Shown here: piece by piece, positions 5,053-64,000 of the stretch
Position numbering within the stretch: position 1 is the first letter of the stretch
Layout of the letters: each line of letters opens with the position of its first letter
Assembly (NCBI GenBank): GCA_025544715.1
Contig: GCA_025544715.1_4109.3
Length of the DNA stretch: 64,000 bases
Source of the DNA: Escherichia coli
GTDB lineage: Bacteria > Pseudomonadota > Gammaproteobacteria > Enterobacterales > Enterobacteriaceae
Reading direction: 5' to 3' (one strand)
The notes under the pieces: generated by a model
The model's input: the letters and a program-made list of their open reading frames with translations, nothing else
Told to the model about the DNA's origin: nothing
The model's database searches: none
Position numbers and translations under genes: made by a program

Positions 5053-5529
5053 TTATTTTAGAATATATAAGTGTTTTTCTGCATTGACCAGACGGTGATC
5101 AATGATTTCTTTGATAACGTTCCAGTTACCGCCGCCCAAATCGGCTCCAATTTTCGGGAAATGTACATGAACATCTCGATCAACTTTACAAAAATAATTT
5201 AGATGTTTGAACACATCGTCGATTGCATCATAACTGACATATTTAGCACCGTCATTACCGTACATTTTTTGGGTAATACAGTTTGCAATAATCAAATTAT
5301 CGTTAATTGCTGAATATGCAATTTGTCCAATTCTAAGAAATCCCATTTCCTTTTCATATGCTTTATAATCATCATATGCCATTGGATAACGATTTCTTAG
5401 TTCTTTTGCAAAACCTGAACCCATTTTACCCTGTGCGTTACAACCATGAGCAATTATATGTATTGCTGTTTTATCATCTGTTACAGTACTGAATAATTCA
5501 AACAGATTACCTCGGTGTTCATGAATCAT
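5053..5529 (-). CDS. Macro-domain-like (ADP-ribose binding/processing) protein
   Basis: Gly-rich loops HGCNAQGKMGSGFA and FPKIGADLGGGNW resemble macro domain signature. Confidence 0.45.
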   Translation of the reverse strand: MIHEHRGNLFELFSTVTDDKTAIHIIAHGCNAQGKMGSGFAKELRNRYPMAYDDYKAYEKEMGFLRIGQIAYSAINDNLIIANCITQKMYGNDGAKYVSYDAIDDVFKHLNYFCKVDRDVHVHFPKIGADLGGGNWNVIKEIIDHRLVNAEKHLYILK

Positions 5530-5540
5530 TATATTCTCCG

Positions 5541-5568
5541 AAAAGAAAGGACTCTGTGGTCAGAGTCC
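5541..5568 (-). terminator. Rho-independent terminator
   Basis: Hairpin GGACTCTG-ACCA-CAGAGTCC then T-rich tract. Confidence 0.6.
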
Positions 5569-5578
5569 TTATTTTAAA

Positions 5579-5836
5579 TTATTCTTCTTCACCGAAACGG
5601 ATTTTCTTTAATTCTTTTCGATGCTTTCTAGCTATTGTACTTTTGTGAAGTCTATTACTGCGTTTTGTGTCTTTTGTAATGTACCATGAATCTTCTGGTG
5701 CATCATAATCACAAAATCCATCTTCCGTAATTGTTCCTAAAAATGCAGATTTTTTAGGAATATTAGTTTGAGCTTTAGCCTGAAATTGACCTTTTGCTAA
5801 TTGTTCACGAAAACTGAGCATAATAGTATCTCCCAA
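5579..5836 (-). CDS. Hypothetical protein (85 aa)
   Basis: ORF in array; terminator just downstream. Confidence 0.4.
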   Translation of the reverse strand: MGDTIMLSFREQLAKGQFQAKAQTNIPKKSAFLGTITEDGFCDYDAPEDSWYITKDTKRSNRLHKSTIARKHRKELKKIRFGEEE

Positions 5837-5867
5837 ATTGTTAAGAAGAACTTTTTGTTCTTCACAT

Positions 5868-6119
5868 TTATTTAGGGTTGCCAGAAACCTTCACATATTT
5901 GATAAATGCCAAAATATCATCTTTACTAAAAGATTTTACAATAAATTCGACAGCGGAATCATACTGTTCTTGTTTAGATAGATATTCTTTCATCTTGTTA
6001 ATTTTAATCTGGGCTTTTTCTTTAGCTATTGAAATATCAGGAATTTTGAACTCTACTCCCAACGTATCAGCTAGTTGTTTTGCACGAGATGATACTTTTT
6101 CAATATCCATTAGTTCCAA
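5868..6119 (-). CDS. Hypothetical protein (83 aa)
   Basis: ORF in array. Confidence 0.4.
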   Translation of the reverse strand: MELMDIEKVSSRAKQLADTLGVEFKIPDISIAKEKAQIKINKMKEYLSKQEQYDSAVEFIVKSFSKDDILAFIKYVKVSGNPK

Positions 6120-6358
6120 CGACCTTCTTTAAGACCTTCAATAAACCCAGTACAACCACCTGGTACATAAATGTCATTTACGAAAATTTGAGGAACTTGA
6201 CGAACTGGTTCACCACAAATTTCAGACAGTTTTGAACCATCGATACCTTCAGCAACAATATCTACAAACTCCATTTCAAATTTATTTTGTTCACATACAG
6301 CTTTTGCAGTGTCGCAAAATTTACAACCAGTCTTGCGACCATAAATTTTAACTTTCAT
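6110..6358 (-). CDS. nrdC: Glutaredoxin/thioredoxin (NrdC-like)
   Basis: CKFC active-site CxxC in ~80 aa thioredoxin-fold sized protein. Confidence 0.7.
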   Translation of the reverse strand: MKVKIYGRKTGCKFCDTAKAVCEQNKFEMEFVDIVAEGIDGSKLSEICGEPVRQVPQIFVNDIYVPGGCTGFIEGLKEGRWN

Positions 6359-6359
6359 G

Positions 6360-6761
6360 TTATTTCCTTCTATTTCTTTGAAAAGCTTTAACAGCTTTAA
6401 TAATACTGTTACACATTCGTTCAGTCAAATACTTTTGACATTCTCGTACATCAATGTACATGAACTTATCCAATTCTGGATGACTCTTACCATATCTATT
6501 AGTGTAAGTACTTTTACAAACTAATTCATCTGGTATTGGTTTGTCTTTGGCAGTATAAAAGAAAAGTACTAACCTTTTTCCCTTTCTATAGGATACATCA
6601 CCAAGAAACAGAAGATCATCTTCATCGATTTCGTATCCTGTCTCTTCGAAACATTCACGTACAGCAGCTTCTTTGAAAGTTTCATTACCCTCAGCTTTCC
6701 CTTTAGGTAAATCCCAATGATTCTGTCCGTGTTGTATGTCCGATAAGTATCTGACCATCAC
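6360..6761 (-). CDS. Nudix hydrolase
   Basis: Canonical Nudix box GKAEGNETFKEAAVRECFEETGY. Confidence 0.75.
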   Translation of the reverse strand: MMVRYLSDIQHGQNHWDLPKGKAEGNETFKEAAVRECFEETGYEIDEDDLLFLGDVSYRKGKRLVLFFYTAKDKPIPDELVCKSTYTNRYGKSHPELDKFMYIDVRECQKYLTERMCNSIIKAVKAFQRNRRK

Positions 6762-6868
6762 GATAAAATATTATACCACAACTATAACGCATATCTTATC
6801 TCTTTGTCATCAATCGATGTTCAGATACTAATAATTATATCAGTTATTGGTTTTTTGTCCCACTATTT

Positions 6869-7981
6869 TTAGAACATTTGTTTGATTGCTTCGTAACGAA
6901 GTTCACAAACAAAATCACGAATTTCTGACGTTTCAAGTTCACCATCTTTAACCATTTGCTGAATATCAGGTAATTCAACATCAGTATAACGATCATAAAC
7001 TTTAATAATTAGATCTTCAAGTTCTAAATCAATTTCTTTTCGCAAAATGAAGTATTCCAAAACTTTATAAAGGAATTCTTCACCTCCGTTATTTTTAATA
7101 TTCATATCCAATAAAATATTACCCATTTCAATTGGGGTCTTTTTACGGAATGTTTTGATATCATCACGGAAACGTTTGATATAATTACTAAATTTAACAT
7201 ACTTAACTGGAACTTTAATAGCACCGTTAAGTACTGAATCATTATTTACTTCTTCATTTTCTAGAAGAATAGACCACAGAAAATATGGTTTATATACATC
7301 AGTACAGTTATCTGAAATATAATCAATAAGGTCTAAATTCTTTTTGGTCAAAGATGTATTAAACACCTTTTCGTAATAACCAAATTTACTTAGCGTCTTA
7401 AGGAACTTTGAAGGCTTTTCTTCAGAAAATGCTTTTTCGAATTCCACAAAAACACGGTCAGGAACAAGATGATTTAGCTCACCACTATTGACCATTCCAA
7501 TAGCGAGTTCCTCAGTGCTTTCATGAATAGTAAAGTCTGAATAACGAGTAGCAAATCGAGCAAGACGTAACACGCGTAATGGATCTTCTTTAAAATGGTC
7601 AGAAACATGACGTAGTACCTTGTTCTTGATATCAGCTTTACCACCGTATGGATCGATGTGAATTTGTAGTACTGGATCATACGCAATTGCATTAATTGTA
7701 AGGTCACGGCGATACAAATCTTGTTCTAGTGTTACGCCTTTTGTATCCACTTCAAAGCCACCATATCCAGTACCAGTTTTACGCTCAGTACGGGCTAATG
7801 CGTGTTCATTACCTTCTGGACTTAGATATACTGGGAAATCCTTACCTACTTGCTTATAGCCAATACTTTGCAAGTACTTAAGATCAGATTCGGATGCACC
7901 AACAATGACATAATCTTTGTCTTTTGCACGAAGACCCATTAAACGGTCACGGACGTAACCGCCAACCAAATACTTTTTCAT
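6869..7981 (-). CDS. cca: tRNA nucleotidyltransferase (CCA-adding enzyme / poly(A) polymerase family)
   Basis: Head-domain motifs GGYVRDRLMG...DKDYV and RRDLTINA. Confidence 0.75.
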   Translation of the reverse strand: MKKYLVGGYVRDRLMGLRAKDKDYVIVGASESDLKYLQSIGYKQVGKDFPVYLSPEGNEHALARTERKTGTGYGGFEVDTKGVTLEQDLYRRDLTINAIAYDPVLQIHIDPYGGKADIKNKVLRHVSDHFKEDPLRVLRLARFATRYSDFTIHESTEELAIGMVNSGELNHLVPDRVFVEFEKAFSEEKPSKFLKTLSKFGYYEKVFNTSLTKKNLDLIDYISDNCTDVYKPYFLWSILLENEEVNNDSVLNGAIKVPVKYVKFSNYIKRFRDDIKTFRKKTPIEMGNILLDMNIKNNGGEEFLYKVLEYFILRKEIDLELEDLIIKVYDRYTDVELPDIQQMVKDGELETSEIRDFVCELRYEAIKQMF

Positions 7982-8116
7982 GTTATTCCCCCATCAACCA
8001 ATCACGTAGACGTTCCCAGAAGCCTTTTGGTTGGTATTCTGGGTATTCATATTCATCAGTGCCTTGCTCGGAAACACCCCAATCTTCTTCTAGCATAGCA
8101 ATCATAATGCCTCCAA

Positions 8117-8539
8117 TTAAATTAATCTGTCACGTAGACGGTCGTAATATTTTTTGTGTATAGCTAGTATACACTGATATGCAGAATAGTCAATACCAAA
8201 TGTATCATCAATGAACATGTACTGATCAAGTGTTTCGGGTCCATTATCATCAACTGGTAATGTCCCTTCTTTTTTTGATAGTGTGTGCCACATCAACTCA
8301 CTTTCAATATGGTGAGTTGCGTATGTCAATTCTATCTTACTTTTTCGTAGTAAAATTAACAATTCATCATTGTCGTCGAGTGCATTACGAAATTTAATAC
8401 GAACTGTACCCTGGAAATTATTAGTGTACATAACACGATGATGATTGTATGAAATCAAACCACGCCTTTCAGTACTGATTTCGTGTTCAGCAAAGTACTT
8501 TAACGTTTCATTAAATTTTGGAATTTTAGTAACGTCCAA
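8117..8539 (-). CDS. Hypothetical protein, tandem paralog A
   Basis: Shares YMFIDDTFGIDYSAYQ-like block with adjacent ORF 8526-8942. Confidence 0.5.
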   Translation of the reverse strand: MDVTKIPKFNETLKYFAEHEISTERRGLISYNHHRVMYTNNFQGTVRIKFRNALDDNDELLILLRKSKIELTYATHHIESELMWHTLSKKEGTLPVDDNGPETLDQYMFIDDTFGIDYSAYQCILAIHKKYYDRLRDRLI

Positions 8540-8942
8540 TCACATAATCCTCATAAAGTTCGTATACCCTCATTATACTCTGATATGTATCAAAGTCAAT
8601 ACCAAAGGTATCCTCAATGAACTGATATTGCAAAAACTCTTCCTCTGTGGCAGCAATAGGAAGAGTCCCGTTTCGTTGTTCTGGGGATTGAACATCCTCA
8701 ATATACATCAACACTATACCTTCATCCAGATTTATATCTATCATAAAAACATCTTCACTATAAAATATGTTATATGTACGGATGAAGAGATTTCCTGTTC
8801 TATCATAACTTGACACGTGTGTTTCATAATACATTTTATCTAAACTAAAGAACAAACCTGTACTATCTGGCTTTTTAGTATTTTTTAATTTAATTTCGAT
8901 AGCATCAATAATAGGTTTAATATCAAACTTTTTCATAGACAA
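8526..8942 (-). CDS. Hypothetical protein, tandem paralog B
   Basis: Shares YQFIEDTFGIDFDTYQ block with 8117-8539. Confidence 0.5.
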   Translation of the reverse strand: MSMKKFDIKPIIDAIEIKLKNTKKPDSTGLFFSLDKMYYETHVSSYDRTGNLFIRTYNIFYSEDVFMIDINLDEGIVLMYIEDVQSPEQRNGTLPIAATEEEFLQYQFIEDTFGIDFDTYQSIMRVYELYEDYVIGRY

Positions 8943-9118
8943 ATCACATACTTATTACTATGTGGGTCGTAACAATATGAATCATTTACCTTAATACCAG
9001 GCTTAAGTTCAATAGTTGTTCCTGTTTCAGTACTGGATTCCGCATCACAGTAAATCATCACACCAACTCCTGCGAGTAATGCTACGATACATACAATTAC
9101 ACCAATGGTATATTCCAT
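8933..9118 (-). CDS. Small membrane protein (61 aa)
   Basis: Hydrophobic N-terminal segment. Confidence 0.4.
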   Translation of the reverse strand: MEYTIGVIVCIVALLAGVGVMIYCDAESSTETGTTIELKPGIKVNDSYCYDPHSNKYVICL

Positions 9119-9131
9119 TTCAATTCCTCGG

Positions 9132-9527
9132 TTATAAAAAGTAATTATACATTTTATTGTACAATATAAAAAGATCTTTCACATTATCATAAGTAATATC
9201 AGATACATCATGAATTAATGATAACTGAAAAAATGAAGCTTCGTCTATTTCTGCTGGAATTATAACATCACCATCGTCTTCGTCCATTTTATTAGTGTAG
9301 TATTTTATGTGATCTACATTCAACTCAATAGAGAACGCAATGTTGGTTTTTGTATAATCTTCAATTAATCCAATATATTGAGATTTTTCATTAATAAAAA
9401 ATCCAATCCCAATACAACGGTTATCTGTATATGGATAGTACCATCTATTAATAACTAGGTGTTCAGGTAAGTCCATATCATGTGTTGATATTAGAGATTT
9501 TACAATTTCCATCCAGGAATAATTCAT
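9132..9527 (-). CDS. Hypothetical protein (131 aa)
   Basis: ORF in array. Confidence 0.45.
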   Translation of the reverse strand: MNYSWMEIVKSLISTHDMDLPEHLVINRWYYPYTDNRCIGIGFFINEKSQYIGLIEDYTKTNIAFSIELNVDHIKYYTNKMDEDDGDVIIPAEIDEASFFQLSLIHDVSDITYDNVKDLFILYNKMYNYFL

Positions 9528-9542
9528 AATTAAAACTCCATA

Positions 9543-9569
9543 AGAAAAGGGACAGAATTAATCTGTCCC
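9543..9569 (-). terminator. Rho-independent terminator after hpf
   Basis: Hairpin GGGACAGA-loop-TCTGTCCC then T-rich tract. Confidence 0.6.
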
Positions 9570-9580
9570 TTTAGTCTATA

Positions 9581-9913
9581 TTACTCTTCGTTTTCTGTCA
9601 AATCATCAAGAACTGGGTGTTCTGGATGGTTTCGGCGGTGTAATTTAATGCTTTTGTCTTTACTGAATACAGTTTCCATCTTATCAAAAGATTCAACAAT
9701 TGCTTTATACAAATCAGCATCATCAGCAGTGACTGATTTACTACCAGCAGTTAAAGTTACAGCATATTGAGTTTTATGCTCTTTCTTAACATGAACACCA
9801 ATGTCTAGTACTGAAGAAGTACGGTACTTATCCAGACTTTTTGCTTCATTGTAAATAGCATCTTGGATTGCTGGAGTGATATCAACGTTGCCTTGAATAT
9901 TTAGATTTAGCAT
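9581..9913 (-). CDS. hpf: Ribosome hibernation promoting factor (HPF/RaiA family)
   Basis: N-terminus MLNLNIQGNVDITPAIQDAI...KSLDKY parallels E. coli HPF MQLNITGNNVEITEALREFV...KLEQY from memory. Confidence 0.7.
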   Translation of the reverse strand: MLNLNIQGNVDITPAIQDAIYNEAKSLDKYRTSSVLDIGVHVKKEHKTQYAVTLTAGSKSVTADDADLYKAIVESFDKMETVFSKDKSIKLHRRNHPEHPVLDDLTENEE

Positions 9914-20195: not shown

Positions 20196-20226
20196 TAAAA
20201 AAAGAGAACTCCATATGAAGTTCTCT
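20196..20226 (-). terminator. Rho-independent terminator after 929-aa gene
   Basis: Hairpin AGAGAACT-loop-AGTTCTCT then T-rich tract. Confidence 0.6.
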
Positions 20227-20257
20227 AATTATACATAATTACTTTTTCTATGTCAAG

Positions 20258-23048: not shown

Positions 23049-23585
23049 TCATACTCCTGCTCTAATTAATGCACCGTACCATGTAACTCCTTTATCATAT
23101 GTTTCTAATGAAATAATATCTTTTTCACCAATTTCATAAGAAAGAACAACTGGTCTATTATATGACCATTTAACATTTGAACCCCAATTAACGAGGTTAG
23201 ACCCTGTTTGCTGAGTTAATAGGATAGTAATTGAATAAACTTCAGTAGGAGCAGCACCAATAGCAATAGTGGTATTTCTGTCAGATAAATTAATATTAAA
23301 AACTGTATTACCTGATAGGGGATTAATTAAAATATTATTAGAACTCAATACATTATATAACTTGTTACTAGCACTATCATACAATGTTACCCATTCTGTT
23401 TCATGATTCTCATTAGTAGCTTTAGCTTTTATTTTTACATTATTTTCGGAAGAAGTCATTCCAGTCCAGCCAGAAATAATAAAAGAACTGTTTTTATTTG
23501 TTCCAAATGATGCAATTACCGAATCACTAAGAGAACTATCTTCACCGTCAATAGATCCGAGTACTGACAATGTTAAAACCATCAT
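23049..23585 (-). CDS. Hypothetical beta-rich protein (178 aa), possibly fibre-like
   Basis: Ser/Thr/Asn-rich composition. Confidence 0.45.
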   Translation of the reverse strand: MMVLTLSVLGSIDGEDSSLSDSVIASFGTNKNSSFIISGWTGMTSSENNVKIKAKATNENHETEWVTLYDSASNKLYNVLSSNNILINPLSGNTVFNINLSDRNTTIAIGAAPTEVYSITILLTQQTGSNLVNWGSNVKWSYNRPVVLSYEIGEKDIISLETYDKGVTWYGALIRAGV

Positions 23586-23748
23586 TTTTAATGTCTACAC
23601 CAGTTGCACCTGAAAAATTATTTTGAAATTTAATAACTCCGGTAGTGTGGATATCTGTGAAAATTTGTTGTGCCATACTTAATCCTTGCGTTAATTTATA
23701 TTGAGTATTTATCGAGTATAATGGCATTTTTAGTACCATTATACTCAT
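23548..23748 (-). CDS. Hypothetical protein (66 aa); may be joined to 23049-23585 by frameshift
   Basis: 38-nt out-of-frame overlap with downstream ORF. Confidence 0.3.
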   Translation of the reverse strand: MSIMVLKMPLYSINTQYKLTQGLSMAQQIFTDIHTTGVIKFQNNFSGATGVDIKNDGFNIVSTRIY

Positions 23749-23753: not shown

Positions 23754-24986
23754 TTACTTATACCATTGCATTTCTCTGATATCAATGATAATTTTTGATG
23801 CTAATTTAATGTTTGGTTTTTTGGGAAGTACTGATTTCTTATATAGAACATCACGAATGTATTGTACTTTATCATCGAAATATTCTAATACTTCTTCATA
23901 CTTCCACTTACCATTACGAATATCCATCAACATTTGTGCATCAGGTCGTTTAACTTGAATAATTCCACTCTGTAATGCTTCTTCTGCACTATTCAAAAGT
24001 CTAATTGTGTGCATAGCATGTTTACAATCGTATCCGTGTTGTGATTCTAAAATAGCACGTTTGGCATTACGATTTTCTTTCCATTTATGATAACTTTTCC
24101 TATTCTCACTATTCTCCTGATATTCTTTTTCGTTAAATTTTACAATTAGTTCTGGTTTGGTTTTCAACTCTTCAGTACTACGTTCTTTAGAAAAATAACG
24201 CAATGAACCATCATGGTTAATAGTGCTTTCATTAGGATTCTTAACAATCGCAAAAATGTTTTCTCCGTAATGAATTAGTTCATAACCATTATTAAAATTC
24301 AATAAATTGAAATCACGATCAAGAATTTTTTCAGTAGTGTAGTTATGTACTAATCTTACGAAATGATATTGCTTTAATGGATTTTTCGAAACTAACTGCA
24401 ATGATGTATCACGCATATATTTTTCAAAATCAATCTTTTTAGCATTAAATGGATGTAAGTTGGATGTATCTAAACGTTCAACAAGATACTGTGGGAATGA
24501 ATCATACATCCACGCAAGAACCTCATCGACAGGGTGTTCTTCTAAAATCTCATTTAATCGTTTTTCAGCAATACGCTCTTTATCCATCCAACCGTGATGA
24601 TTTGTCATACGCTTAATCTGATTATATGCATATCCAGTGTATGAAAATGCAATCTTGGAACTAAGAAGTTTTTGGTTAAATGAACGAAGATAGTCATAAA
24701 TTTCAGTACTTTCAACAATGTGTTCAGGTTCAACCCAAAGTGATTCAAGAATATTAGGGTTAGCTTCAGTGTATAATTTTAAATACTGATTCAACTCATA
24801 GAATTTAGTATCTTCTTCGCTTTTATCAGCTACCTCTTTGACCTTATAGAAGGGTGTAAGAATAAATTCTTTATTAGCAAGAAAAATACCACGATAATCA
24901 GTATCACTTTCAGGTGTACTGGTTCCGTAGGCTTGTGACCCAGCCAAGTGTTTCACTATTGTTTGTTCAATATATTGGTTATTCAT
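23754..24986 (-). CDS. Pol-beta-superfamily nucleotidyltransferase
   Basis: N-terminal motif GSQAYGTSTPESDTDYRGIF (GS...DxD). Confidence 0.5.
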   Translation of the reverse strand: MNNQYIEQTIVKHLAGSQAYGTSTPESDTDYRGIFLANKEFILTPFYKVKEVADKSEEDTKFYELNQYLKLYTEANPNILESLWVEPEHIVESTEIYDYLRSFNQKLLSSKIAFSYTGYAYNQIKRMTNHHGWMDKERIAEKRLNEILEEHPVDEVLAWMYDSFPQYLVERLDTSNLHPFNAKKIDFEKYMRDTSLQLVSKNPLKQYHFVRLVHNYTTEKILDRDFNLLNFNNGYELIHYGENIFAIVKNPNESTINHDGSLRYFSKERSTEELKTKPELIVKFNEKEYQENSENRKSYHKWKENRNAKRAILESQHGYDCKHAMHTIRLLNSAEEALQSGIIQVKRPDAQMLMDIRNGKWKYEEVLEYFDDKVQYIRDVLYKKSVLPKKPNIKLASKIIIDIREMQWYK

Positions 24987-26987: not shown

Positions 26988-27020
26988 AATTTCCTCCTAT
27001 TTTTATTCAATTATACACAT

Positions 27021-27048
27021 AAAAGAAAAGCCCGTCAATAGACGAGCT
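27021..27048 (-). terminator. Probable terminator after fibre-like gene
   Basis: Imperfect hairpin AGCTCGTC-TATT-GACGGGCT then TTTTCTTTT. Confidence 0.45.
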
Positions 27049-27054
27049 TTAAAT

Positions 27055-53777: not shown

Positions 53778-55196
53778 TTAACCTAATGATTCAATAATAC
53801 TGTTTGAGAACACTTCAACCGCACTCTCACGAATTTCTAAGATACGAGTATAATCGTCACAAGTGTTTTTGTCAAATCTAAATTCAATAAACACAGGTAA
53901 GAACAGTGATGGTTCACCAGTACGCTTGTCGAATACAATGTCATTACACTCAACAGTAACCACTTTACCAATAAGTTCTTGCATTCTTTCCCAAATGGTT
54001 TTAAATGTCCATTCAGCATCTTTTTCGCGGATGCCTGTTCCTACGCTTACTTTTAGTGTACCACAAGCACTTTCCAGTTGTAAAGAACCAAGCATACCTT
54101 TACGTTTACCTTCACCTTTATTGAAACCAACAATACGCAAGTCCAGTTGCATTTTCAATTTCATTTTCAACTGCTTAGGAGAAGTATGAGATTTCCAGAT
54201 ACCATCTTCACATTTCAGTACTGAACCTTCTTCACCTTCAGCCATGAGTTCGCTATTGTACTCAAATGCTTCTTTGATATTTTGGACTTTACGATAACCT
54301 ACCATACGAACAAATTCACTACCCAATGCATTGATTGCACCTTCAAGAATCTCTCGGCGTTCTTTACGTTTTACATTCCATACACCTTCACAGAAAGCAT
54401 CATATGGCACGACATCCCATAGAACGAATACTGTACGCATTGCTTCGCTTTGGTTAATGGTATCCTTACCTGCTTTCTGAATGATCCCGTTGCCAGTTGT
54501 ACGTGGTAGAATAGTTTCCCCATCAGTATCAAGTACCAACCCTTCCCCCATAAAGACTACACCACTACTGAAACGTTCATCTTTACTTTGGATGATGTGA
54601 GCAAGACCTGCCATCTCACCATCACGACAACCCAGGAAGTCGTACAGTTTGCCATTACGGGATGTAGAAGTTAATGAACCATTAATGACAACGTGGTTCA
54701 AGTACTGACCATCCATTTTCACTTCTGATATAGCGTAACCATAATCTTTGAAGTTGATGTTCTTTGCAGTCTTTTTGTCAATCAAAGAACAACGCATATA
54801 TGGTTCGTCTTTGATGAATCCTTTACCAAACACATCATTGCAGTTCTTCTCCTGAATACCACAATCAAGGTTCTTAGTGAGCATTTTACGGAGAACTTCC
54901 TGATCATCTTCAGATACAGAACCCAGTACTGAAGCAATGAAATCACGCCCCGCATTTCCTGTCACATCACGCTTGTAAATGCATTCCAGCTTATCAATTG
55001 CTTCATCTAACGTCATATGTTGATATACGTCATCAGCGACTGGTAGCTTCTTATAGCCACTTACGATAGAAGGGTCGAGAGTATATTTCAGAACTTTTTG
55101 TAAAGTTACATTATCTTTATTTTGTTCAAGAATAGCCTTTTTGCCCAGAGTACTGCTAGTATTTTTAATGCTTTCAAGAATTGCTAAAATGCTCAT
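53778..55196 (-). CDS. ATP-dependent DNA ligase
   Basis: Adenylation motif EVKMDG; size and organisation like T4 gp30. Confidence 0.8.
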   Translation of the reverse strand: MSILAILESIKNTSSTLGKKAILEQNKDNVTLQKVLKYTLDPSIVSGYKKLPVADDVYQHMTLDEAIDKLECIYKRDVTGNAGRDFIASVLGSVSEDDQEVLRKMLTKNLDCGIQEKNCNDVFGKGFIKDEPYMRCSLIDKKTAKNINFKDYGYAISEVKMDGQYLNHVVINGSLTSTSRNGKLYDFLGCRDGEMAGLAHIIQSKDERFSSGVVFMGEGLVLDTDGETILPRTTGNGIIQKAGKDTINQSEAMRTVFVLWDVVPYDAFCEGVWNVKRKERREILEGAINALGSEFVRMVGYRKVQNIKEAFEYNSELMAEGEEGSVLKCEDGIWKSHTSPKQLKMKLKMQLDLRIVGFNKGEGKRKGMLGSLQLESACGTLKVSVGTGIREKDAEWTFKTIWERMQELIGKVVTVECNDIVFDKRTGEPSLFLPVFIEFRFDKNTCDDYTRILEIRESAVEVFSNSIIESLG

Positions 55197-55207
55197 TGTA
55201 TATTCCT

Positions 55208-56410
55208 TTATAGATAATACTTTCCAATATAAAGTGGATTACTAATTGATAGTTGAACGTGACACGGCTTATCTTGGTAGTAACGAGAACTTGATGTTTT
55301 GCGTTCATTTGGTGGGAAGAATGGTGAACGATAACCGTTCCATGTACTAAATGATGTGTGCTCATTAATATCAACATCCATTGACATAATTCCATTATCA
55401 TCAATTTGAACTGGGTATGCACTAAAGCGTTCAAATTTATCATTATAATGAATATTATAATCCCCGCTACGTCCATAATAACTACGTGTTGTATTATTAC
55501 TTACACCAAAAAATACGCGATAAGATTGTTCATTATCTTTAGTCATAAATGGTACGTTCTCGTTGAAACGTCCATTATTCATAAGATCATCAACATTTAT
55601 TTCTTCATATTTAATTTTTAGGTCTTTTGCTTTAAATGATTTATTGTGTACCAGTACTGGAATGTTAGATTCACCTAATGGGTTATGTCTGTTTGTTCTA
55701 TAGCTTTGCCAAAATTCATTAGCAAGTTTAATTTCTTCATCTGCCGTAGTCTTCTTATTCAAGAGTGCACGAGGTTCCAGATTGTAATTATCCAAACGTT
55801 GATTCAATGCATAAGTTCCACGAGTACTGTTATAAAGTAAATGATAAACAGAACTTTTGTCGGGGTATGCAAATTCTTTAGTTTTCTTTATACAAATTGC
55901 ATGTACTTTACCGCAGTAATAGTAATCTTCTTTGAGATACGTGAAGCCATCACCAACTTTAAGACCTGCTACAGTTTCTTTTTGTTGTTCTTTTTTATTT
56001 TCTTTTTCAACTAACTTAGCAAATGTTTTTGTTTTACCATTAATTAATTCTAAGTTATTGTTGAAAAACATTGGGTCTACAAAAACACCTTTGATTATAT
56101 CGTTATTGATAATTAAATCATTCATGTTTTTGGCACTAATCATAAATTCAAATCCTTCTGGGTGACGGATTGTGAAATATGTTTCTCGTGCATGAATTGT
56201 TAATTTATCAACTACACAAAATCCAGTAGTTGGAACGTTGTCAATATATAACGATGGAAGATTGTTCTTCTTTGCCCAGTACTCTGCTCTCTCTTTCTTT
56301 GTTTCAAACGCTTTTGTATGTGATTTTGTTGCATCGATAATAAAACCATCAACTTGGTTGTGGTTTACATAGGAACGTGCAACAAATAACTTCTCTGGAA
56401 AATCCATCAA
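55208..56410 (-). CDS. Hypothetical protein (400 aa)
   Basis: ORF in array. Confidence 0.5.
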   Translation of the reverse strand: MMDFPEKLFVARSYVNHNQVDGFIIDATKSHTKAFETKKERAEYWAKKNNLPSLYIDNVPTTGFCVVDKLTIHARETYFTIRHPEGFEFMISAKNMNDLIINNDIIKGVFVDPMFFNNNLELINGKTKTFAKLVEKENKKEQQKETVAGLKVGDGFTYLKEDYYYCGKVHAICIKKTKEFAYPDKSSVYHLLYNSTRGTYALNQRLDNYNLEPRALLNKKTTADEEIKLANEFWQSYRTNRHNPLGESNIPVLVHNKSFKAKDLKIKYEEINVDDLMNNGRFNENVPFMTKDNEQSYRVFFGVSNNTTRSYYGRSGDYNIHYNDKFERFSAYPVQIDDNGIMSMDVDINEHTSFSTWNGYRSPFFPPNERKTSSSRYYQDKPCHVQLSISNPLYIGKYYL

Positions 56411-56826
56411 ATAGTCCTCATTGTACTGATTGCTTTTAGTGTGTCAAACAATGCACCATATTTTACTTGCATTAGTTGATCACCCGCAGGAAGATTCATA
56501 CGCATAACAGCCATGTCTTCAATCATTTCAGACGTACACAGTACTGCTACACAGGTAATAGCATCATTTAATCCAGCTTCATTGAATTTGGCAAAAGGAA
56601 CTTTTCCCTGTTTGCTAAGGTTGTTATAATAAGAATTTAATTTATCATGTCCACCAGCATTTAGTACTACAATAGTTTCGTGTTCATAGTACCATTCATC
56701 AATAATAGTACTGAAAGCAGTACCTTCATATTCTTTAATTAGTTTAACACCAGCATGGAATGCTTGAATACCAGCTTGGACACCTTGACAGTACATATTA
56801 GTTAAGCAATACAATTTCATTTCCAT
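56407..56826 (-). CDS. Hypothetical protein (139 aa)
   Basis: ORF in array. Confidence 0.45.
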   Translation of the reverse strand: MEMKLYCLTNMYCQGVQAGIQAFHAGVKLIKEYEGTAFSTIIDEWYYEHETIVVLNAGGHDKLNSYYNNLSKQGKVPFAKFNEAGLNDAITCVAVLCTSEMIEDMAVMRMNLPAGDQLMQVKYGALFDTLKAISTMRTI

Positions 56827-57044
56827 ACCTCTTGTTTTTCTACATAGCCTTTCCCATCACAGTGTGGACAAGCAAAAAAGCTGCGGTAATCTTCTGACGG
56901 TACTTGTTGTGTTCCATTACATGTAGGACACACTTTACGTGCACCCGAAATAATACGTTCATGGTGTTCAGCTTGTTTAGCTGAATCAAAAATACGACCA
57001 TCTTCAGTTTGGTATTTTTCTACCATAACTTGAATTACTTTCAT
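56817..57044 (-). CDS. Zinc-ribbon protein (75 aa)
   Basis: CPTC...CPHC. Confidence 0.45.
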   Translation of the reverse strand: MKVIQVMVEKYQTEDGRIFDSAKQAEHHERIISGARKVCPTCNGTQQVPSEDYRSFFACPHCDGKGYVEKQEVWK

Positions 57045-57054
57045 TTCTATTTCC

Positions 57055-57324
57055 TTATAAAAATGTTAAATCTTCAGTACTTAATTGTGATAATTTACCA
57101 TCATATTCAATTTCAACATATACATTTTGGTCATAAACAGCAACTACACGTTTAATAACTCCAATCTTCACTACATTCTTTTTGTAGTAGAACTCAACTG
57201 AACAACCAATAAGTTTATTTGATAGAATCTCACGTATTTGATTAGCATGATCTTTTAGGATAGAATTAATAGATTTTTTCATAATATATCTATCATTCAA
57301 ATATTTTTTAACTACATCATGCAT
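57055..57324 (-). CDS. Hypothetical protein (89 aa)
   Basis: ORF in array. Confidence 0.4.
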   Translation of the reverse strand: MHDVVKKYLNDRYIMKKSINSILKDHANQIREILSNKLIGCSVEFYYKKNVVKIGVIKRVVAVYDQNVYVEIEYDGKLSQLSTEDLTFL

Positions 57325-57329
57325 AATTA

Positions 57330-58088
57330 TTACCTTTTGAAACGATTGAATGAGTACTCATCTTTTTCTTTACGTAAGTATCTCATCCCACCACTTTGTG
57401 GAGTAGCAAGAGTTAAGTCACCCGTCAAGAACTGACTATCAATCCAAATGCGATTACCATAAATGAGTGGTTCAGTAACGGCTGTATGTCCACTAAAGAC
57501 ACAATGCACTCCATCTAACTTAGGTGCATAATAGGTATTATTCATTCTACAATAATCGAATGTTTTCCTATCCCACAAGCACTTATCAATTATATCAGCA
57601 CTAAGTGATTTTGTCCCATTAACAAATCGTTCCCATGTTGTATATTCCAACGGAACTCCAGCATGAACTAACCCAATCTTCAATCCTCGGTGATTGATTT
57701 GGATAATCATGGGTAAATCTTTTAAGTACTGACGAAAGAATTGAATGCCTGTTCCTCCAACTTCATCAAGGAATTTATCACCACCATTACTTATCCAACA
57801 ATGATACCAATCTCGAAGTGTTTCCGAATCAACGCACATCATCTCATGATTACCCGCAATCATGTAACGATTTTCTCCGAACAAAAATTCAAAAAGGAGC
57901 TTTGAATTTTGTTCTCCACGGTCGATAATATCACCTACACTGAAAACATAATCATTGTGTGTAATACCAAATTCTTTCACTGTAGCATCCCATAGTTTAC
58001 CATTACCATGCAAATCACCTACAATGTATAAATCTTTATCATCAGGTACGGTTACTTCTAAGAAATGTTTCATTATTACTCCAACCAT
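57330..58088 (-). CDS. Ser/Thr protein phosphatase (PPP-family metallophosphatase)
   Basis: GDLHG, GDIIDRG, GNHE motifs. Confidence 0.7.
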   Translation of the reverse strand: MVGVIMKHFLEVTVPDDKDLYIVGDLHGNGKLWDATVKEFGITHNDYVFSVGDIIDRGEQNSKLLFEFLFGENRYMIAGNHEMMCVDSETLRDWYHCWISNGGDKFLDEVGGTGIQFFRQYLKDLPMIIQINHRGLKIGLVHAGVPLEYTTWERFVNGTKSLSADIIDKCLWDRKTFDYCRMNNTYYAPKLDGVHCVFSGHTAVTEPLIYGNRIWIDSQFLTGDLTLATPQSGGMRYLRKEKDEYSFNRFKR

Positions 58089-58327
58089 ATAATATTAGTG
58101 TGTTTAGTAACTTGTGTTCCAGCAAAAGAACCATCTTTAAGATAAGTATTAATTTTAAAACGCCATTCACCACCACTAATATACATATCAGTAATAATAT
58201 ACTTTCCATACCCTCTAGAGTTTATTAATCGTACTTCTTGACCAATATATTTTGGCTTCAGATCATTTATAAAATCATCAGCCAAAGACATAAGATATCG
58301 CAAATGTGATAAGTCGTGGTTGAACAT
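58076..58327 (-). CDS. Hypothetical protein (83 aa)
   Basis: ORF in array. Confidence 0.4.
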   Translation of the reverse strand: MFNHDLSHLRYLMSLADDFINDLKPKYIGQEVRLINSRGYGKYIITDMYISGGEWRFKINTYLKDGSFAGTQVTKHTNIIWLE

Positions 58328-58542
58328 TATTTCTTTCTCTTATATTTGTTAATAATATCTTGGGTAAGTGAAATAAAAATATATACTAACGTTACAGGCC
58401 AAATAATAGCCATCAGTGCTGCTGTTTGGAGATTCATGATAATCATGAATTCATCTTTAAAACAACCCCAATTAAGTACTAGAAAGTTGGTTATAAATGT
58501 AACAAATGCTACAAATCCATATATTGCAAAAAATGTTATCAT
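58327..58542 (-). CDS. Small membrane protein (71 aa)
   Basis: Two hydrophobic helices. Confidence 0.4.
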   Translation of the reverse strand: MITFFAIYGFVAFVTFITNFLVLNWGCFKDEFMIIMNLQTAALMAIIWPVTLVYIFISLTQDIINKYKRKK

Positions 58543-58544
58543 AA

Positions 58545-58874
58545 TTATTCCTCATCATCCACTAAAACAAGATAATCCAAACTCAACTCTGTATCTATGT
58601 AACAATCACAATTCAAGTACTCAATTTCAGCACCTATAGTTCTCCCATTCTTAAATATCTCAATGATTTTCATTCTAGTATTGGGATTAATGTGTTCAAT
58701 GTCGTATTCGTATTCAGGGTCAATATACTGACTTGTAATACGTTTGATGTATTGTTCCGAATATCGTACAGTTTTACCTATAAGATCATTACTCAACGTC
58801 TGATAAAAATCATCTTGAATTTTGAATAATGACCTATAAAAAATATTATGTTGAATTAGTGGTTTCATAGACAT
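58545..58874 (-). CDS. Hypothetical protein (109 aa)
   Basis: ORF in array. Confidence 0.45.
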   Translation of the reverse strand: MSMKPLIQHNIFYRSLFKIQDDFYQTLSNDLIGKTVRYSEQYIKRITSQYIDPEYEYDIEHINPNTRMKIIEIFKNGRTIGAEIEYLNCDCYIDTELSLDYLVLVDDEE

Positions 58875-59503
58875 TAATCACAACTTCCAGAAGATGAACT
58901 TGAATCAGAACTAGAGCTATCATAGGAACAAGAATCAGAGGAAGAACTGCTGTGACGGCTATAATCACTGTAATCATCATTGTTGTAGATTGGTGATGTT
59001 ACGATTGCTGCTGCGGTCGCTGCCGTTGCAATTTGTGCAGTATGGTCATGAACACCTAGTTGTGGTTCATCCTTAGATTTACCTTTGTTCTTACCTTTAG
59101 TGTAACGAGCTTTCTTTGCAGTTTTAGTATTTTTCTGTGCTTTAGGAGCTTTTGGTTTCACATCTTCAACGACTGGAACTACATTCACTACAACTTTAGG
59201 GTCAGTTTCTTCAAGTGTATTATACACTTTAACTTGCATTTGCACTTCAACTTCTTTAACTTCTTCTTTAACTTCTGGAATAACTGTTTCTGGTGCTGGG
59301 GTGATTTTATCAAGTTCTTCAGTAATAAAGAAGCTTGTATTTTTCTCACCTAGCATAACAAGAAGACCAATAGCAATCACTGGACTTAGTACTGTACCAA
59401 GTACTACATAACCTAGAACACTTCTGTTATAGTTATATGCAAGCATACCAGAAATAATAATACCGATTACATATGCACTGCTAAGAATAATTGGGGTTAA
59501 CAT
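58874..59503 (-). CDS. Membrane protein with Lys-rich linker and Ser-rich C-terminal tail
   Basis: Two N-terminal TM helices; C-terminal low-complexity Ser/Asp/Cys tail. Confidence 0.45.
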   Translation of the reverse strand: MLTPIILSSAYVIGIIISGMLAYNYNRSVLGYVVLGTVLSPVIAIGLLVMLGEKNTSFFITEELDKITPAPETVIPEVKEEVKEVEVQMQVKVYNTLEETDPKVVVNVVPVVEDVKPKAPKAQKNTKTAKKARYTKGKNKGKSKDEPQLGVHDHTAQIATAATAAAIVTSPIYNNDDYSDYSRHSSSSSDSCSYDSSSSDSSSSSGSCD

Positions 59504-59807
59504 ATTCTACTCCTTTGTATATAAATTTACTAACTTCTTCGATGTATAAAGACGTCCCTAAACGTTCATTTAGAACTAACCAAGCACCAAAACCACATCG
59601 AATCTCGGATATATGAAACTCTTCTACACTGTAATTTGAATACGCCTTAAATGGACATATTTCATCAGATATACTTACCACATAGTTATTACTAATTGAA
59701 TCTAACACTTGGGTATTGTATAAATTATTAGTACTGAAAATGTGCATTAACGAACTAGAAAGCATCTCGAATGTCTTTTCTAAAATTGTTAAAAACGAAC
59801 CATTCAC
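59481..59807 (-). CDS. Hypothetical protein (108 aa)
   Basis: ORF in array. Confidence 0.4.
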   Translation of the reverse strand: MNGSFLTILEKTFEMLSSSLMHIFSTNNLYNTQVLDSISNNYVVSISDEICPFKAYSNYSVEEFHISEIRCGFGAWLVLNERLGTSLYIEEVSKFIYKGVEYVNPNYS

Positions 59808-59864
59808 TTCAACTTCTCCACATTGGTGATGTAATCAAATTATATCACCGAATTCTGATACGTC

Positions 59865-60170
59865 TCATGATATTCGCATTTCATCTATATATAATGAACA
59901 TGATTCAGAATTATCGTCTAAACTTAAACCTAAATCAACCATTAAACCACAATGAGTTCCCCAGAATTTCTTTATGTATAGTTTTTTCCTACTATTACCT
60001 AAATCATAAACATATTCATTTTTAAACATACTTTTTAATTCTTCACATATACATTTTACTATCTTCATTAATTGATTATGATATTCGTATGGTATCCCAT
60101 CAAGTTCGTTAATTATTAATGCAAAACCATTATCATAGTACTTTAGCTTATTGAATGTTTGTATATCCAT
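59865..60170 (-). CDS. Hypothetical protein (101 aa)
   Basis: ORF in array. Confidence 0.4.
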   Translation of the reverse strand: MDIQTFNKLKYYDNGFALIINELDGIPYEYHNQLMKIVKCICEELKSMFKNEYVYDLGNSRKKLYIKKFWGTHCGLMVDLGLSLDDNSESCSLYIDEMRIS

Positions 60171-60467
60171 TTAATATATAATCTCACTAGCTTCTATTGT
60201 GTAGACACCATCATCAGTCATTAATCTTACTGCAACTTTAATATTACTAGACAATCGTGTAACTATCAATCCAATAATTATACCATCCTTTAAAGTACCA
60301 TTATGGTATCTTACTTGTACTTTAGTTTTGTTATCAATTAGGTATCTTCGAATATAATGAATTTCAGTTCTAAACAGTTCTAAGTAAACTTCACTATATT
60401 CCTTATCTGAACCGTCTGAACACCAGTACAATAAATTTACTTGTTCAAATAATTTTTTTATATTCAT
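60171..60467 (-). CDS. Hypothetical protein (98 aa)
   Basis: ORF in array. Confidence 0.4.
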   Translation of the reverse strand: MNIKKLFEQVNLLYWCSDGSDKEYSEVYLELFRTEIHYIRRYLIDNKTKVQVRYHNGTLKDGIIIGLIVTRLSSNIKVAVRLMTDDGVYTIEASEIIY

Positions 60468-60766
60468 AAAAATCTCACAGATTTAATATTACTAGTTACA
60501 TGATTAACCCAAGTGTTATCGAACTTGTAAACAATTGTATTAAGTGATTTATGAAAATTAACCTCAGACACCACAGCCTTGGAACCATTGATTACACAGA
60601 CGGTTGACGGTAAATTATTTGCTAATATCTCTTTTTCATCTAAAGATAGTGAACTAATACAATCATAATAGAGAGGTTCAAGAACTTGTTCAGTACTGAG
60701 AAATTCAAAAGAAAGATCATCTATTAGTTTTATGTAATCGAATAAATTATGATAATATTCATTCAT
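60464..60766 (-). CDS. Hypothetical protein (start likely MNEYYHN at 60766)
   Basis: Internal ATG avoids 65-nt overlap with upstream gene. Confidence 0.4.
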   Translation of the reverse strand: MNEYYHNLFDYIKLIDDLSFEFLSTEQVLEPLYYDCISSLSLDEKEILANNLPSTVCVINGSKAVVSEVNFHKSLNTIVYKFDNTWVNHVTSNIKSVRFL

Positions 60767-61013
60767 TGCAGATCCTTTTAAATTTAGCATTATTAGAATA
60801 TGTATATGAATGACCAAAATCATTTACGCCATGTACATTTAGTACACCGTCACTGAAATAAATTCGTTCAATAGTGAGTTCACGTTTATAATCCCAATCA
60901 TCATACCAGCACAGAACACGAATACCTTTGTACTTTGTAGTTAAATCATTTTCTAATATAGTCAAGTAATCAATATGACTTTTGAATATCTCTAAGTCCT
61001 GCTCAAACATCAT
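60759..61013 (-). CDS. Hypothetical protein (84 aa)
   Basis: ORF in array. Confidence 0.4.
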   Translation of the reverse strand: MMFEQDLEIFKSHIDYLTILENDLTTKYKGIRVLCWYDDWDYKRELTIERIYFSDGVLNVHGVNDFGHSYTYSNNAKFKRICNE

Positions 61014-61270
61014 TGTTCCTCGTATAATTCTATATCATCAACTCCAACTTGGCGAATTGCAGTACTTCTGTTGAATGTATTTTTTTCAAACAAACATACT
61101 GTTAAACGTATTTCACACTTCAATGCACTGTAATAAATCATATCAATAACACCATATGTTTCATACATTTCTACGTATACATTTCGACCTAAATACTTTT
61201 CTTCTAAATCAGTAATTAGACTATTGATAAGATTACCTATCTGTGTTATATCTGTGTGAAATTTATCCAT
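61010..61270 (-). CDS. Hypothetical protein (86 aa)
   Basis: ORF in array. Confidence 0.4.
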   Translation of the reverse strand: MDKFHTDITQIGNLINSLITDLEEKYLGRNVYVEMYETYGVIDMIYYSALKCEIRLTVCLFEKNTFNRSTAIRQVGVDDIELYEEQ

Positions 61271-61515
61271 TATAATAAACCTCTCACATAAAACATTGAT
61301 GAAAATAGATAATCATTAGTACTTGTGTTTAGTTGTTTAGAAAAGTTATATTTTTTATCTTTATTTTCGTATAAAGACAATCTATAGAACATTTCTATAT
61401 TTTCTAAGTATTCTTTTTGTAACAACATCTGTGTTTTTACATTCATTACAATATACCTTAAAAGAAAAAGGGACCAACATATGATCCCTTTTGTATTAGA
61501 AATTTCCTTCTGCAA
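61270..61515 (-). CDS. Hypothetical protein (81 aa)
   Basis: ORF in array. Confidence 0.35.
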   Translation of the reverse strand: MQKEISNTKGIICWSLFLLRYIVMNVKTQMLLQKEYLENIEMFYRLSLYENKDKKYNFSKQLNTSTNDYLFSSMFYVRGLL

Positions 61516-62428
61516 CTTGAAAAACTTTCAAGCCAAGTAGTTTACGCCACATGAATACAACTTGATCGCGGTCATCATAAACCTTTTTAACATCGTAATG
61601 ATCAACCACATTTTTCATGTACAGGTCGAATTTTACAACATCATCGGGACGTTTATCATCGATGTCTCGCATAAACAATGCATCGTAAGGAACACCCCAA
61701 TTCTTAAGCCACTGTTCGGTATCAGCACGACACCCTTCAGTACGCCCACTCATGACGATAATCTTGCGTTTATGAAAAACTGCTTCAGCGATAATAGACA
61801 AAATAACTTCTTCATCTGGTGTATCCTGAAGAACAGTACTTTCATCGTAAGGATTACGACCCCATTTATGAGCAAGAGTACCGTCAATATCAACGATAAC
61901 AGCAGCTTCTCGTGAATTACCATAGTAACCAATGTGCATGGCCTTACTATAATAGTACGTATCTGCCATAGTGTCAATGATATTATCTTGTACAGAACGC
62001 TCACGCATGAGGTTACGTTTCTTACAAAGTTTTACGAACTCTTTAATCTTAAAGAAAACATGAACATCTGCACCACGATCTTCATTCGGTACAAAATCTT
62101 CGTAGAAGTTCTTTTCTTTGTAGTCGTATTCATTATCTTTAGCCCAACGTTTCCATTCATCACGGAAATGTTGTTTAAGGTTCGTATCGGACACAATGAT
62201 GTTCCAACCATTCTCTGCTGCTGAATTTGCTGCACTGAACTGCATTTTAGTTACGTACTGCTCATTAGCGTCGTTGAATTTGTATGCATCATGTGACCCA
62301 GCCATAGATTCACGAATATCATCACGGTTGATGTTGATAGTCTTTGATTTGGCATTTTTAATTTCTTGAACTGCCCATGTAGTTTTACCACAACCAGGCA
62401 ACCCAACTGTTAGTGTAATAGTTGGCAT
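61496..62428 (-). CDS. pseT: Polynucleotide 5'-kinase/3'-phosphatase (T4 PseT-like)
   Basis: P-loop GLPGCGKTT; HAD motif VIVDIDGTL; C-terminus DDRDQVVFMWRKLLGLKVFQVAEGNF parallels T4 Pnk from memory. Confidence 0.85.
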   Translation of the reverse strand: MPTITLTVGLPGCGKTTWAVQEIKNAKSKTININRDDIRESMAGSHDAYKFNDANEQYVTKMQFSAANSAAENGWNIIVSDTNLKQHFRDEWKRWAKDNEYDYKEKNFYEDFVPNEDRGADVHVFFKIKEFVKLCKKRNLMRERSVQDNIIDTMADTYYYSKAMHIGYYGNSREAAVIVDIDGTLAHKWGRNPYDESTVLQDTPDEEVILSIIAEAVFHKRKIIVMSGRTEGCRADTEQWLKNWGVPYDALFMRDIDDKRPDDVVKFDLYMKNVVDHYDVKKVYDDRDQVVFMWRKLLGLKVFQVAEGNF

Positions 62429-62440
62429 TATTACTCCTTG

Positions 62441-62755
62441 TTACTCAATGAATTCAACATCTTCGAGTTTGTGCCATCCTCTTGAAAGGTTTCTTGTTCC
62501 GTTATTGTATTCAGTGTATACAAAGCATTCACCATTTACTAAATTACCAATAGCAGTACGCGATACTTTAACATCAAGAATTATAGTACTGAACCATTCT
62601 CTGATTGTATGATCCCAGCATTTAACTTTACATCCAATCAATGTTTTCTTAAAATCGAAAACGTAATCTTCGACCATTGATTCGACAGATTCTATTAGTT
62701 CCTTTTCAATGTACTTTAACTTTTCGATCCTCTCAAATGCAAGTTCTTTATTCAT
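62441..62755 (-). CDS. Hypothetical protein (104 aa)
   Basis: ORF in array. Confidence 0.4.
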   Translation of the reverse strand: MNKELAFERIEKLKYIEKELIESVESMVEDYVFDFKKTLIGCKVKCWDHTIREWFSTIILDVKVSRTAIGNLVNGECFVYTEYNNGTRNLSRGWHKLEDVEFIE

Positions 62756-62761
62756 ATGTCC

Positions 62762-63230: not shown

Positions 63231-63239
63231 ATGAACTCC

Positions 63240-63497: not shown

Positions 63498-63524
63498 TTC
63501 TCCTTGTGCTTAGGCTAGATAGTA

Positions 63525-63974: not shown

Positions 63975-64000
63975 GCTTTCACGGAAGGTATTTCGTACCG

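Follow-up and report, generated by a model that had tools for sequence, protein, structure and literature searches.

The window analysed here is a stretch of 64,000 nucleotides deposited as Escherichia coli (contig GCA_025544715.1_4109.3), and it carries a gene for a 410-residue nucleotidyltransferase (NTase) of the RlaP family that resembles NrdC.11 of phage T4. Between bases 20000 and 30000 the window shares 96-98% nucleotide identity with the Asteriusvirus jumbo coliphages G17, Sharanji, 121Q, PBECO4 and phAPEC6, and judged by this similarity it is itself from an Asteriusvirus jumbo coliphage of the G17/121Q/PBECO4 type. The 410-aa open reading frame (ORF) of the original prediction is genuine, and by the ORF list it has an ATG start and lies on the minus strand; translating the same bases on the plus strand gives many stops. 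The start codon of the NTase shares the sequence ATGA with the stop of an upstream 133-aa ORF and is preceded, at a distance of 14 nt, by AGGAG. The sequence itself is not new, since PBECO4 encodes exactly the same protein (100% identity), and the label ‘nucleotidyltransferase’ already stands on the counterparts in 121Q (gene 506), the PBECO4 RefSeq record and G17. The NTase is thus an annotated member of a named family, and a review has covered the occurrence of this family in jumbo phages. Homologues 82-87% identical to it occur in six further deposits labelled Escherichia coli (P0003, P0008, P0011, P0014, P0022 and P0028), on contigs of 345-360 kb. These contigs are Asteriusvirus-like jumbo-phage genomes within bacterial assemblies, reflecting either a carrier state or contamination.

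The catalytic triad of the NTase is intact. The peptide quoted in the original prediction, GSQAYGTSTPESDTD, is found at residues 16-30, and the GS and DxD elements named there are present as G16-S17 and D28-x-D30, although their spacing, counted on the translation, is x10 and not x11. Across 42 aligned homologues that are 39-86% identical to the query, there is no exception at G16, S17, either aspartate of the DxD pair or the third carboxylate, D59 (42 of 42), so the acidic pair survives realignment and the motif is no chance match but real and under selection. An AlphaFold2 (AF2) model built from these 42 sequences is two-lobed and confident (mean predicted local distance difference test score, pLDDT, 91.8; predicted template-modelling score 0.81), and it places the three carboxylates and the hG[GS] motif of Pol-beta NTases on adjacent strands. 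The model has an alpha/beta NTase core at about residues 1-111, followed by a long helix (112-150) that runs into a small helical insertion (112-200 in all). The alignment assigns this insertion to particular forms of the protein, as its part from about 136 to 200 is present in the Rak2-like jumbo-phage forms of ~410-435 aa and missing from homologues of ~350 aa. The long helical C-terminal domain that had been predicted is there, ending in a terminal helix at 393-409, but it accounts for residues 286-410 only, and a beta-rich middle subdomain (about 205-285) precedes it that is also common to the ~350-aa phage homologues. Thirteen residues of the C-terminal domain are invariant in the alignment (W302, R306, N307, R310, E314, D320, K322, H326, R329, E336, R347, D349 and R357), and they form a basic/polar cluster.

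Two homologues are much longer, one of 781 aa (L080:5947-8292, plus strand) and one of 686 aa (P0094), and they contain inserts of ~340 aa and ~310 aa, respectively. Both inserts split the NTase exactly at the invariant motif GYD|CK(H/F)AMH, begin with Cys, end in HGN followed by Cys, and give a weak match to LAGLIDADG_3. From these sequence features, they are probably inteins with a homing endonuclease. The NTase of the window has the intein-free form GYDCKHAMH, with the Cys at +1 being residue 321 (codon 24024..24026), and the choice of this site for an intein suggests that the motif is functionally critical.

The original prediction regarded the type and specificity of the enzyme as unclear, and profile searches remove much of that uncertainty. 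Pfam PF10127, RlaP (‘RNA repair pathway DNA polymerase beta family’), matches residues 13-131 (59.2 bits, E=6e-16; the cutoff is 23), and four other members of the subfamily, T4 NrdC.11 included, also score above the cutoff. In PHROGs, phrog_388 (‘nucleotidyltransferase’) matches residues 4-409 across its 351-position profile at E=3e-76. BLASTP against NrdC.11 of the T4-type phage RB14 recovers both terminal domains, with 28% identity in the N-terminal domain (E=2e-12) and 24% in the C-terminal domain (E=2e-5). Full-length profile and two-domain homology together make the NTase a T4 NrdC.11-like, phrog_388 protein. Among the roles originally put forward, an RNA-repair NTase therefore gains support from the RlaP match, while the family scans lend none to a nucleotide-signal synthase or an antibiotic-type NTase, and no CD-NTase model matched.

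Searches for other relatives returned little. The NCBIfam scan gave only an irrelevant sub-threshold match, and PADLOC gave nothing at E<=1 with a 2023 library that does not contain Hailong. Foldseek against the PDB gave no match better than E=0.017, with kanamycin NTase and Hailong HalB both at E ~0.02, while a structural search of BFVD returned only phage proteins that were unnamed or called ‘nucleotidyltransferase’. Three candidate identities find no support in these searches. A CD-NTase/CBASS-type synthase has no PADLOC match and no corresponding Pfam family, and CdnD structures appear in Foldseek only at E>1. Antibiotic NTases (ANT/Lnu) have no family match in Pfam or NCBIfam, and their structural matches (E>=0.017) come with template-modelling scores of ~0.2-0.3 and 10-12% identity. 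HalB is 16% identical and was matched by neither the single-sequence nor the profile search of the PDB. The modelled fold is a minimal NTase joined to a helical domain of HEPN-like/KNTase type, which would agree with the description of the Pseudomonas enzyme PfRlaP, and is not close to antibiotic NTases, CD-NTases or HalB.

The window also encodes partner enzymes for RNA repair (Table 1), and all of the genes discussed here are on the minus strand. The T4-type polynucleotide kinase-phosphatase (Pnkp) is pseT-like by comparison with G17, and the RNA ligase 1 (Rnl1, RnlA) fragment is equivalent to the C-terminal end of rnlA in G17 (380 aa). By jackhmmer, the CCA-adding enzyme and the PTH2-like peptidyl-tRNA hydrolase are homologous to genes that sit beside the NTase in other phages. 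With its repair genes the phage has a full T4-style healing and sealing kit into which the product of an RlaP would feed. The 64-kb window contains no tRNA genes. Genes for nucleic-acid repair are densely packed at positions 53778..64000 (minus strand), where a DNA ligase and a metallophosphoesterase join the PTH2-like gene, Pnkp and RNA ligase 1. At the other end, the cluster at 5053..9913, with its Macro-domain, Nudix, CCA-adding and hibernation-factor genes, hints at a module for RNA, ADP-ribose and translation.

To place the NTase among its relatives, we sampled 87 NTase loci with windows of +/-6 kb, of which 80 came from IMG/VR, 4 from metagenome contigs and 3 from phages in GenBank. Their ORFs were grouped into clusters, and a neighbour-joining tree was calculated for the NTases. 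Three types of neighbourhood emerge. A CCA-adding enzyme is encoded 0.4-2.5 kb upstream on the same strand in 17 of the 87 loci, which fall on at least 8 deep branches of the tree, and in 10 of these 17 it is accompanied by a PTH2-like gene of ~155 aa that often lies exactly between the two. This type comprises L007, L010, L004, L002, L003 and 12 further IMG/VR loci, with Vibrio phage 496E54-1, Pseudaeromonas phage KLEP7 and Cronobacter phage CR8 as examples, and one of the PTH2-like proteins passes the Pfam PTH2 threshold. The three genes are contiguous in many smaller phages, while in the present window they are spread over ~50 kb. The second type is a recombination neighbourhood described below, and the third is the Rak2-like jumbo clade, this window included, where fibre genes and a set of paralogues surround the NTase. 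No partner family is common to all three types, as judged for c1, c27, the paralogues and the 133-aa and 178-aa ORFs, with hhalign probabilities of at most 1%; the same comparison ruled out the upstream 133-aa ORF as the PTH2-like partner seen elsewhere. The sole linkage that recurs across deep branches is thus to tRNA 3'-end enzymes, and the fibre and recombination contexts, each confined to a single clade, may simply reflect inherited gene order. In another jumbo lineage (L008, a 435-aa NTase on a 329-kb contig), a weak ART-PolyVal/DUF3990-like ADP-ribosyltransferase candidate lies directly upstream of the NTase (L008:5455-6000, plus strand), flanked by NrdD/NrdG and fibre-like genes.

Table 1. 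Features of the NTase gene, its transcription unit and the other genes discussed, in coordinates of the 64-kb window.
Feature	Size or residues	Position	Strand	Basis
NTase gene, RlaP/NrdC.11-type, phrog_388	410 codons + stop	23754..24986	minus	ORF list, Pfam, PHROGs, PBECO4 identity
Pol-beta NTase core	residues 1-135	24582..24986	minus	Pfam match residues 13-131; alignment; AF2
G16-S17	residues 16-17	24936..24941	minus	alignment
D28-x-D30	residues 28-30	24897..24905	minus	alignment
D59, third carboxylate	residue 59	24810..24812	minus	alignment
Helical insertion	residues ~136-200	24387..24581	minus	alignment gap in ~350-aa forms; AF2 pLDDT ~85-94
Beta-rich middle subdomain	residues 201-285	24132..24386	minus	AF2 strands 210-215, 235-241, 244-249, 280-284
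Helical C-terminal domain	residues 286-410	23757..24131	minus	AF2; invariant basic/polar cluster
CCA-adding tRNA nucleotidyltransferase	370 aa	6869..7981	minus	Pfam PolyA_pol + PolyA_pol_RNAbd; jackhmmer
PTH2-like peptidyl-tRNA hydrolase	139 aa	56407..56826	minus	Pfam PTH2, 25.2 bits vs cutoff 23; jackhmmer
T4-type Pnkp	310 aa	61496..62428	minus	Pfam HAD_PNKP E=8e-44 + AAA_33; G17
T4-type RNA ligase 1 (RnlA), C-terminal part	gene cut by window end	63525..64000	minus	Pfam T4_Rnl1_C E=8e-18
Macro-domain ORF (weak)		5053..5529	minus	sub-threshold match, E=0.009
Nudix hydrolase		6360..6761	minus	
Ribosome hibernation factor homologue		9581..9913	minus	
ATP-dependent DNA ligase		53778..55196	minus	
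Metallophosphoesterase		57330..58088	minus	
Terminator-like hairpin overlapping sigma-70-like promoter (11/12)		27027..27050 (hairpin); 27010..27038 (promoter)	minus	consensus scan; G17 terminator at equivalent position
Paralogue	188 aa	26421..26987	minus	phrog_18641 / phrog_7868
Paralogue	173 aa	25893..26414	minus	phrog_18641 / phrog_7868
Paralogue	169 aa	25387..25896	minus	phrog_18641 / phrog_7868
133-aa ORF	133 aa	24983..25384	minus	phrog_22376
Tiny ORF, no family		23548..23748	minus	
Tail-fibre protein	178 aa	23049..23585	minus	phrog_32568
Tail protein	929 aa	20258..23047	minus	phrog_2871
Terminator-like hairpin after 929-aa gene, end of unit		20203..20226	minus	consensus scan; G17 annotation

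The NTase gene is part of a transcription unit that likely starts at the hairpin and promoter element of 27010..27050 and ends at the hairpin behind the 929-aa tail gene. As originally noted, it stands upstream of a fibre-like block, with the 178-aa and 929-aa tail genes downstream of it in the direction of transcription. On its other side are three tandem paralogues with 21-31% mutual identity and no Pfam match, and a 939-aa protein of phrog_3573 is also encoded upstream. Each of the 14 Rak2-like jumbo-phage loci in the sample (L011-L024) keeps the paralogue triplet upstream of the NTase. None of the neighbours in the unit scored above threshold in Pfam. A perfect 12/12 sigma-70 consensus promoter (20228..20256, minus strand) adjoins the terminal hairpin, and together with the 11/12 promoter it encloses the NTase/fibre unit. 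No T4-type late promoter (TATAAATA) was found near the fibre genes, and TATAAATA is under-represented in the window as a whole (3 found against ~13 expected).

What RlaP proteins do is known chiefly from bacteria. Burroughs and Aravind are cited as having given the family its name for its linkage to RNA ligases. According to Iyer et al. (2021), no repair NTase is more prevalent in jumbo phages than RlaP, and its distribution follows that of RNA ligases; RNA ligases, Pnkp, a CCA-adding enzyme and PTH2 are also on their jumbo-phage list. A December 2025 preprint characterises two Pseudomonas RlaPs, PfRlaP and PaRlaP, which in E. coli extracts label RNA alone and leave DNA and protein unlabelled (PMC12776372). 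They attach one or two nucleoside monophosphates (NMPs), or their deoxy counterparts, to RNA 3'-OH ends, with a preference for Mn2+, and their preferred substrate is a mimic of the 5' half of a tRNA cleaved in the manner of colicin E5 (PMC12776372). When a tRNA lacks one anticodon-loop nucleotide, treatment with RlaP and then ligation restores aminoacylation, and the authors propose that RlaP is an antidote to nucleotide-excising ribotoxins such as RloC, its 3'-OH product being suited to 5'-phosphate RNA ligases (PMC12776372). The same preprint counts T4 NrdC.11 in PF10127 and places it in a separate cluster, number 5, of its similarity network (PMC12776372). In its crystal structure, PfRlaP has an N-terminal NTase and a C-terminal helical domain, the last helix of which packs on the NTase domain, and a basic cleft.

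We consider it probable that the NTase of the window is a non-structural accessory enzyme that restores tRNA or RNA 3' ends in counter-defence. With the bacterial RlaPs and the synteny described above as guides, the phage subfamily may act on the same substrate and may repair tRNAs against host defences in vivo. In such a scheme, host anticodon or acceptor-stem nucleases would cleave tRNAs during infection and Pnkp would heal the ends to 3'-OH and 5'-phosphate. The NTase, through a predicted two-metal site formed by G16-S17, D28-x-D30 and D59, would then place one or two NMPs from NTPs onto trimmed 3'-OH ends, chiefly those of ribotoxin-trimmed tRNAs. Rnl1 would seal breaks in the anticodon loop, and the CCA-adding enzyme would finish acceptor ends.

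Several observations weigh against this interpretation. The activity on RNA 3' ends has been demonstrated for two bacterial RlaPs only, and the T4 region containing nrdC.11 can be deleted from viable phage. The Pfam match covers only positions 24-144 of the 249 in the RlaP profile, its N-terminal half, as it does in every phage member tested (NrdC.11 and three others); with the insertion deleted, the NTase reaches position 163 only. Scanned alone against Pfam, the C-terminal domain has no match and neither has the middle subdomain, and PDB sequence searches brought up no solved structure, whether the query was the protein by itself or a profile of 42 sequences. We take the half-length match and the lack of any for the isolated regions to mean that the NTase belongs to a divergent phage branch of RlaP and is not a canonical bacterial RlaP. 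The genomic context is also not that for which RlaP was named. There is no operon of the NTase with an RNA ligase, Rnl1 lying ~38.5 kb away, although the genome does encode both Rnl1 and Pnkp, and across the 87 loci Rnl1 and Pnkp each occur within 6 kb of the NTase only once. Instead, the NTase of the window is embedded among tail-fibre genes, and in ~45 IMG/VR loci, all of one large clade of uncultivated phages (e.g. L027, L030 and L067), it stands within a DNA recombination cluster ordered gp32, RecA/UvsX, NTase, a 164-aa ORF, UvsY-like and the helicase UvsW.

A different division of labour within tRNA repair is suggested by the CCA/PTH2-like/NTase triad, the contiguity of which in at least 8 deep branches points to the acceptor end rather than to the anticodon loop. 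Phage NrdC.11/phrog_388 proteins might then be the third enzyme of an acceptor-end repair module and not gap fillers that work with a ligase in the anticodon loop, a proposal that we make tentatively and think rather unlikely to be correct as it stands. The PTH2-like protein would free the 3' end, and the NTase would rebuild nucleotides upstream of CCA, such as a discriminator base lost to acceptor-stem nucleases, before the CCA-adding enzyme finished the end. Recognition of the tRNA would be supplied by the middle subdomain and the jumbo-phage insertion.

The same linkage to CCA-adding and PTH2-like genes, which marks the tRNA acceptor end as a site of action, could also serve an offensive enzyme. 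Intact host tRNAs, at their 3' CCA ends, or other RNAs would then receive extra nucleotides that block charging or mark them, in a MenT-like host shut-off or RNA-tailing role. When given total E. coli RNA, bacterial RlaP does label full-length tRNAs and rRNAs, and its specificity for NTPs is slight, but it favours the damaged 5'-half mimic over an acceptor-end strand when offered both (PMC12776372). The co-occurrence with Pnkp, Rnl1 and the CCA-adding enzyme fits repair better, and we think offensive tailing improbable. Activity on DNA is suggested by the Foldseek resemblance to HalB and by the recombination neighbourhood of the ~45-locus clade, and the NTase could in that case act as a terminal transferase on DNA ends or as a HalB-like synthase of oligodeoxynucleotides, for recombination and repair or to defeat a DNA-signal defence such as Hailong. 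However, DNA is not modified by the bacterial RlaPs (PMC12776372), neither HalB nor any other PDB chain is matched at the level of sequence, and the recombination context, absent around the NTase here, belongs to one monophyletic clade and may be a matter of inherited gene order. The chances of a DNA substrate therefore seem slim to us.

Still further from RNA repair, the combination of an NTase core and a HEPN-like helical domain is common to enzymes that nucleotidylylate proteins or small molecules, and the remote resemblance of the fold to those of kanamycin NTase, LinB, ANT(3'')(9), DrrA, GlnE and MNT/HEPN pairs could be read in favour of AMPylation of the MntA, DrrA or GlnE kind, of ANT/Lnu-type modification, or of CD-NTase-like synthesis of a second messenger. 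We find all of these very unlikely, given the empty PADLOC scan, the lack of any CD-NTase or antibiotic-NTase family in the Pfam and NCBIfam scans, the failure of RlaP to label E. coli proteins (PMC12776372), and an invariant, mostly basic set of C-terminal residues that fits a nucleic-acid or NTP ligand and not an aminoglycoside pocket. A part in the virion or tail fibre, as structural component or assembly factor, would explain why the gene shares one promoter-to-terminator unit with the 178-aa tail-fibre and 929-aa tail genes and why Rak2-like jumbo phages have kept this gene order. The virion proteome of phAPEC6 speaks directly to this point: gp314c (the 929-aa homologue) and gp315c (the tiny-ORF homologue) were detected in it and gp316c, the NTase homologue, was not. 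As the flanking products are in the virion and gp316c is not, the NTase is not a structural protein. Strictly conserved catalytic residues also count against a virion role, as does the fact that outside the Rak2-like clade the NTase is never next to fibre genes in the sampled loci, and we regard such a role as scarcely credible.

Restoration of RNA 3' ends, the reading that we prefer, can be set against systems that are already named. Like bacterial RlaP, the NTase has the hG[GS]...DxD...D catalytic set and a significant Pfam match, its genome also encodes RNA healing and sealing enzymes, and, judged by the AF2 model against the published description of PfRlaP, the two may have in common an NTase domain and a helical domain at the C-terminus whose basic surface is conserved. 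It differs from bacterial RlaP in ~150 extra residues (the helical insertion and the beta-rich middle subdomain) and in that neither RtcB nor any other RNA ligase shares an operon with it. T4 NrdC.11, as represented by its 336-aa RB14 orthologue, is homologous in both terminal domains and is likewise an accessory gene in a phage genome with Pnkp and Rnl1, but it is only ~28% identical and the NTase of the window is 74 residues longer. T4 is not known to encode a CCA-adding enzyme. Class II CCA-adding enzymes (PF01743) belong to the Pol-beta superfamily too, act on tRNA 3' ends and are genomically linked to the NTase in many phages, yet they form another family with a gene of its own in the window, and the NTase has no PolyA_pol match. 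Kanamycin NTase ANT(4'), LinB and ANT(3'')(9), the top Foldseek matches, resemble it in joining an NTase to a helical bundle, whereas the phage context gives no reason for antibiotic modification. Hailong HalB (PDB 9dbh/9dbj) is a 217-aa oligodeoxyadenylate-synthesising NTase that works with the HalA channel in bacterial anti-phage defence, in contrast to the 410-aa phage protein described here.

For the gene itself, this work chiefly tidies an annotation. Beyond that, the CCA/PTH2-like/NTase triad offers a concrete idea of what RlaP-type enzymes of phages repair. How far bacterial defences that target tRNA can reach is limited by the RNA-repair enzymes of phages, and knowing which lesions a phage can reverse would be useful to studies of the arms race between phages and their hosts and of host range in phage therapy, for which Asteriusvirus-type jumbo coliphages are under consideration.

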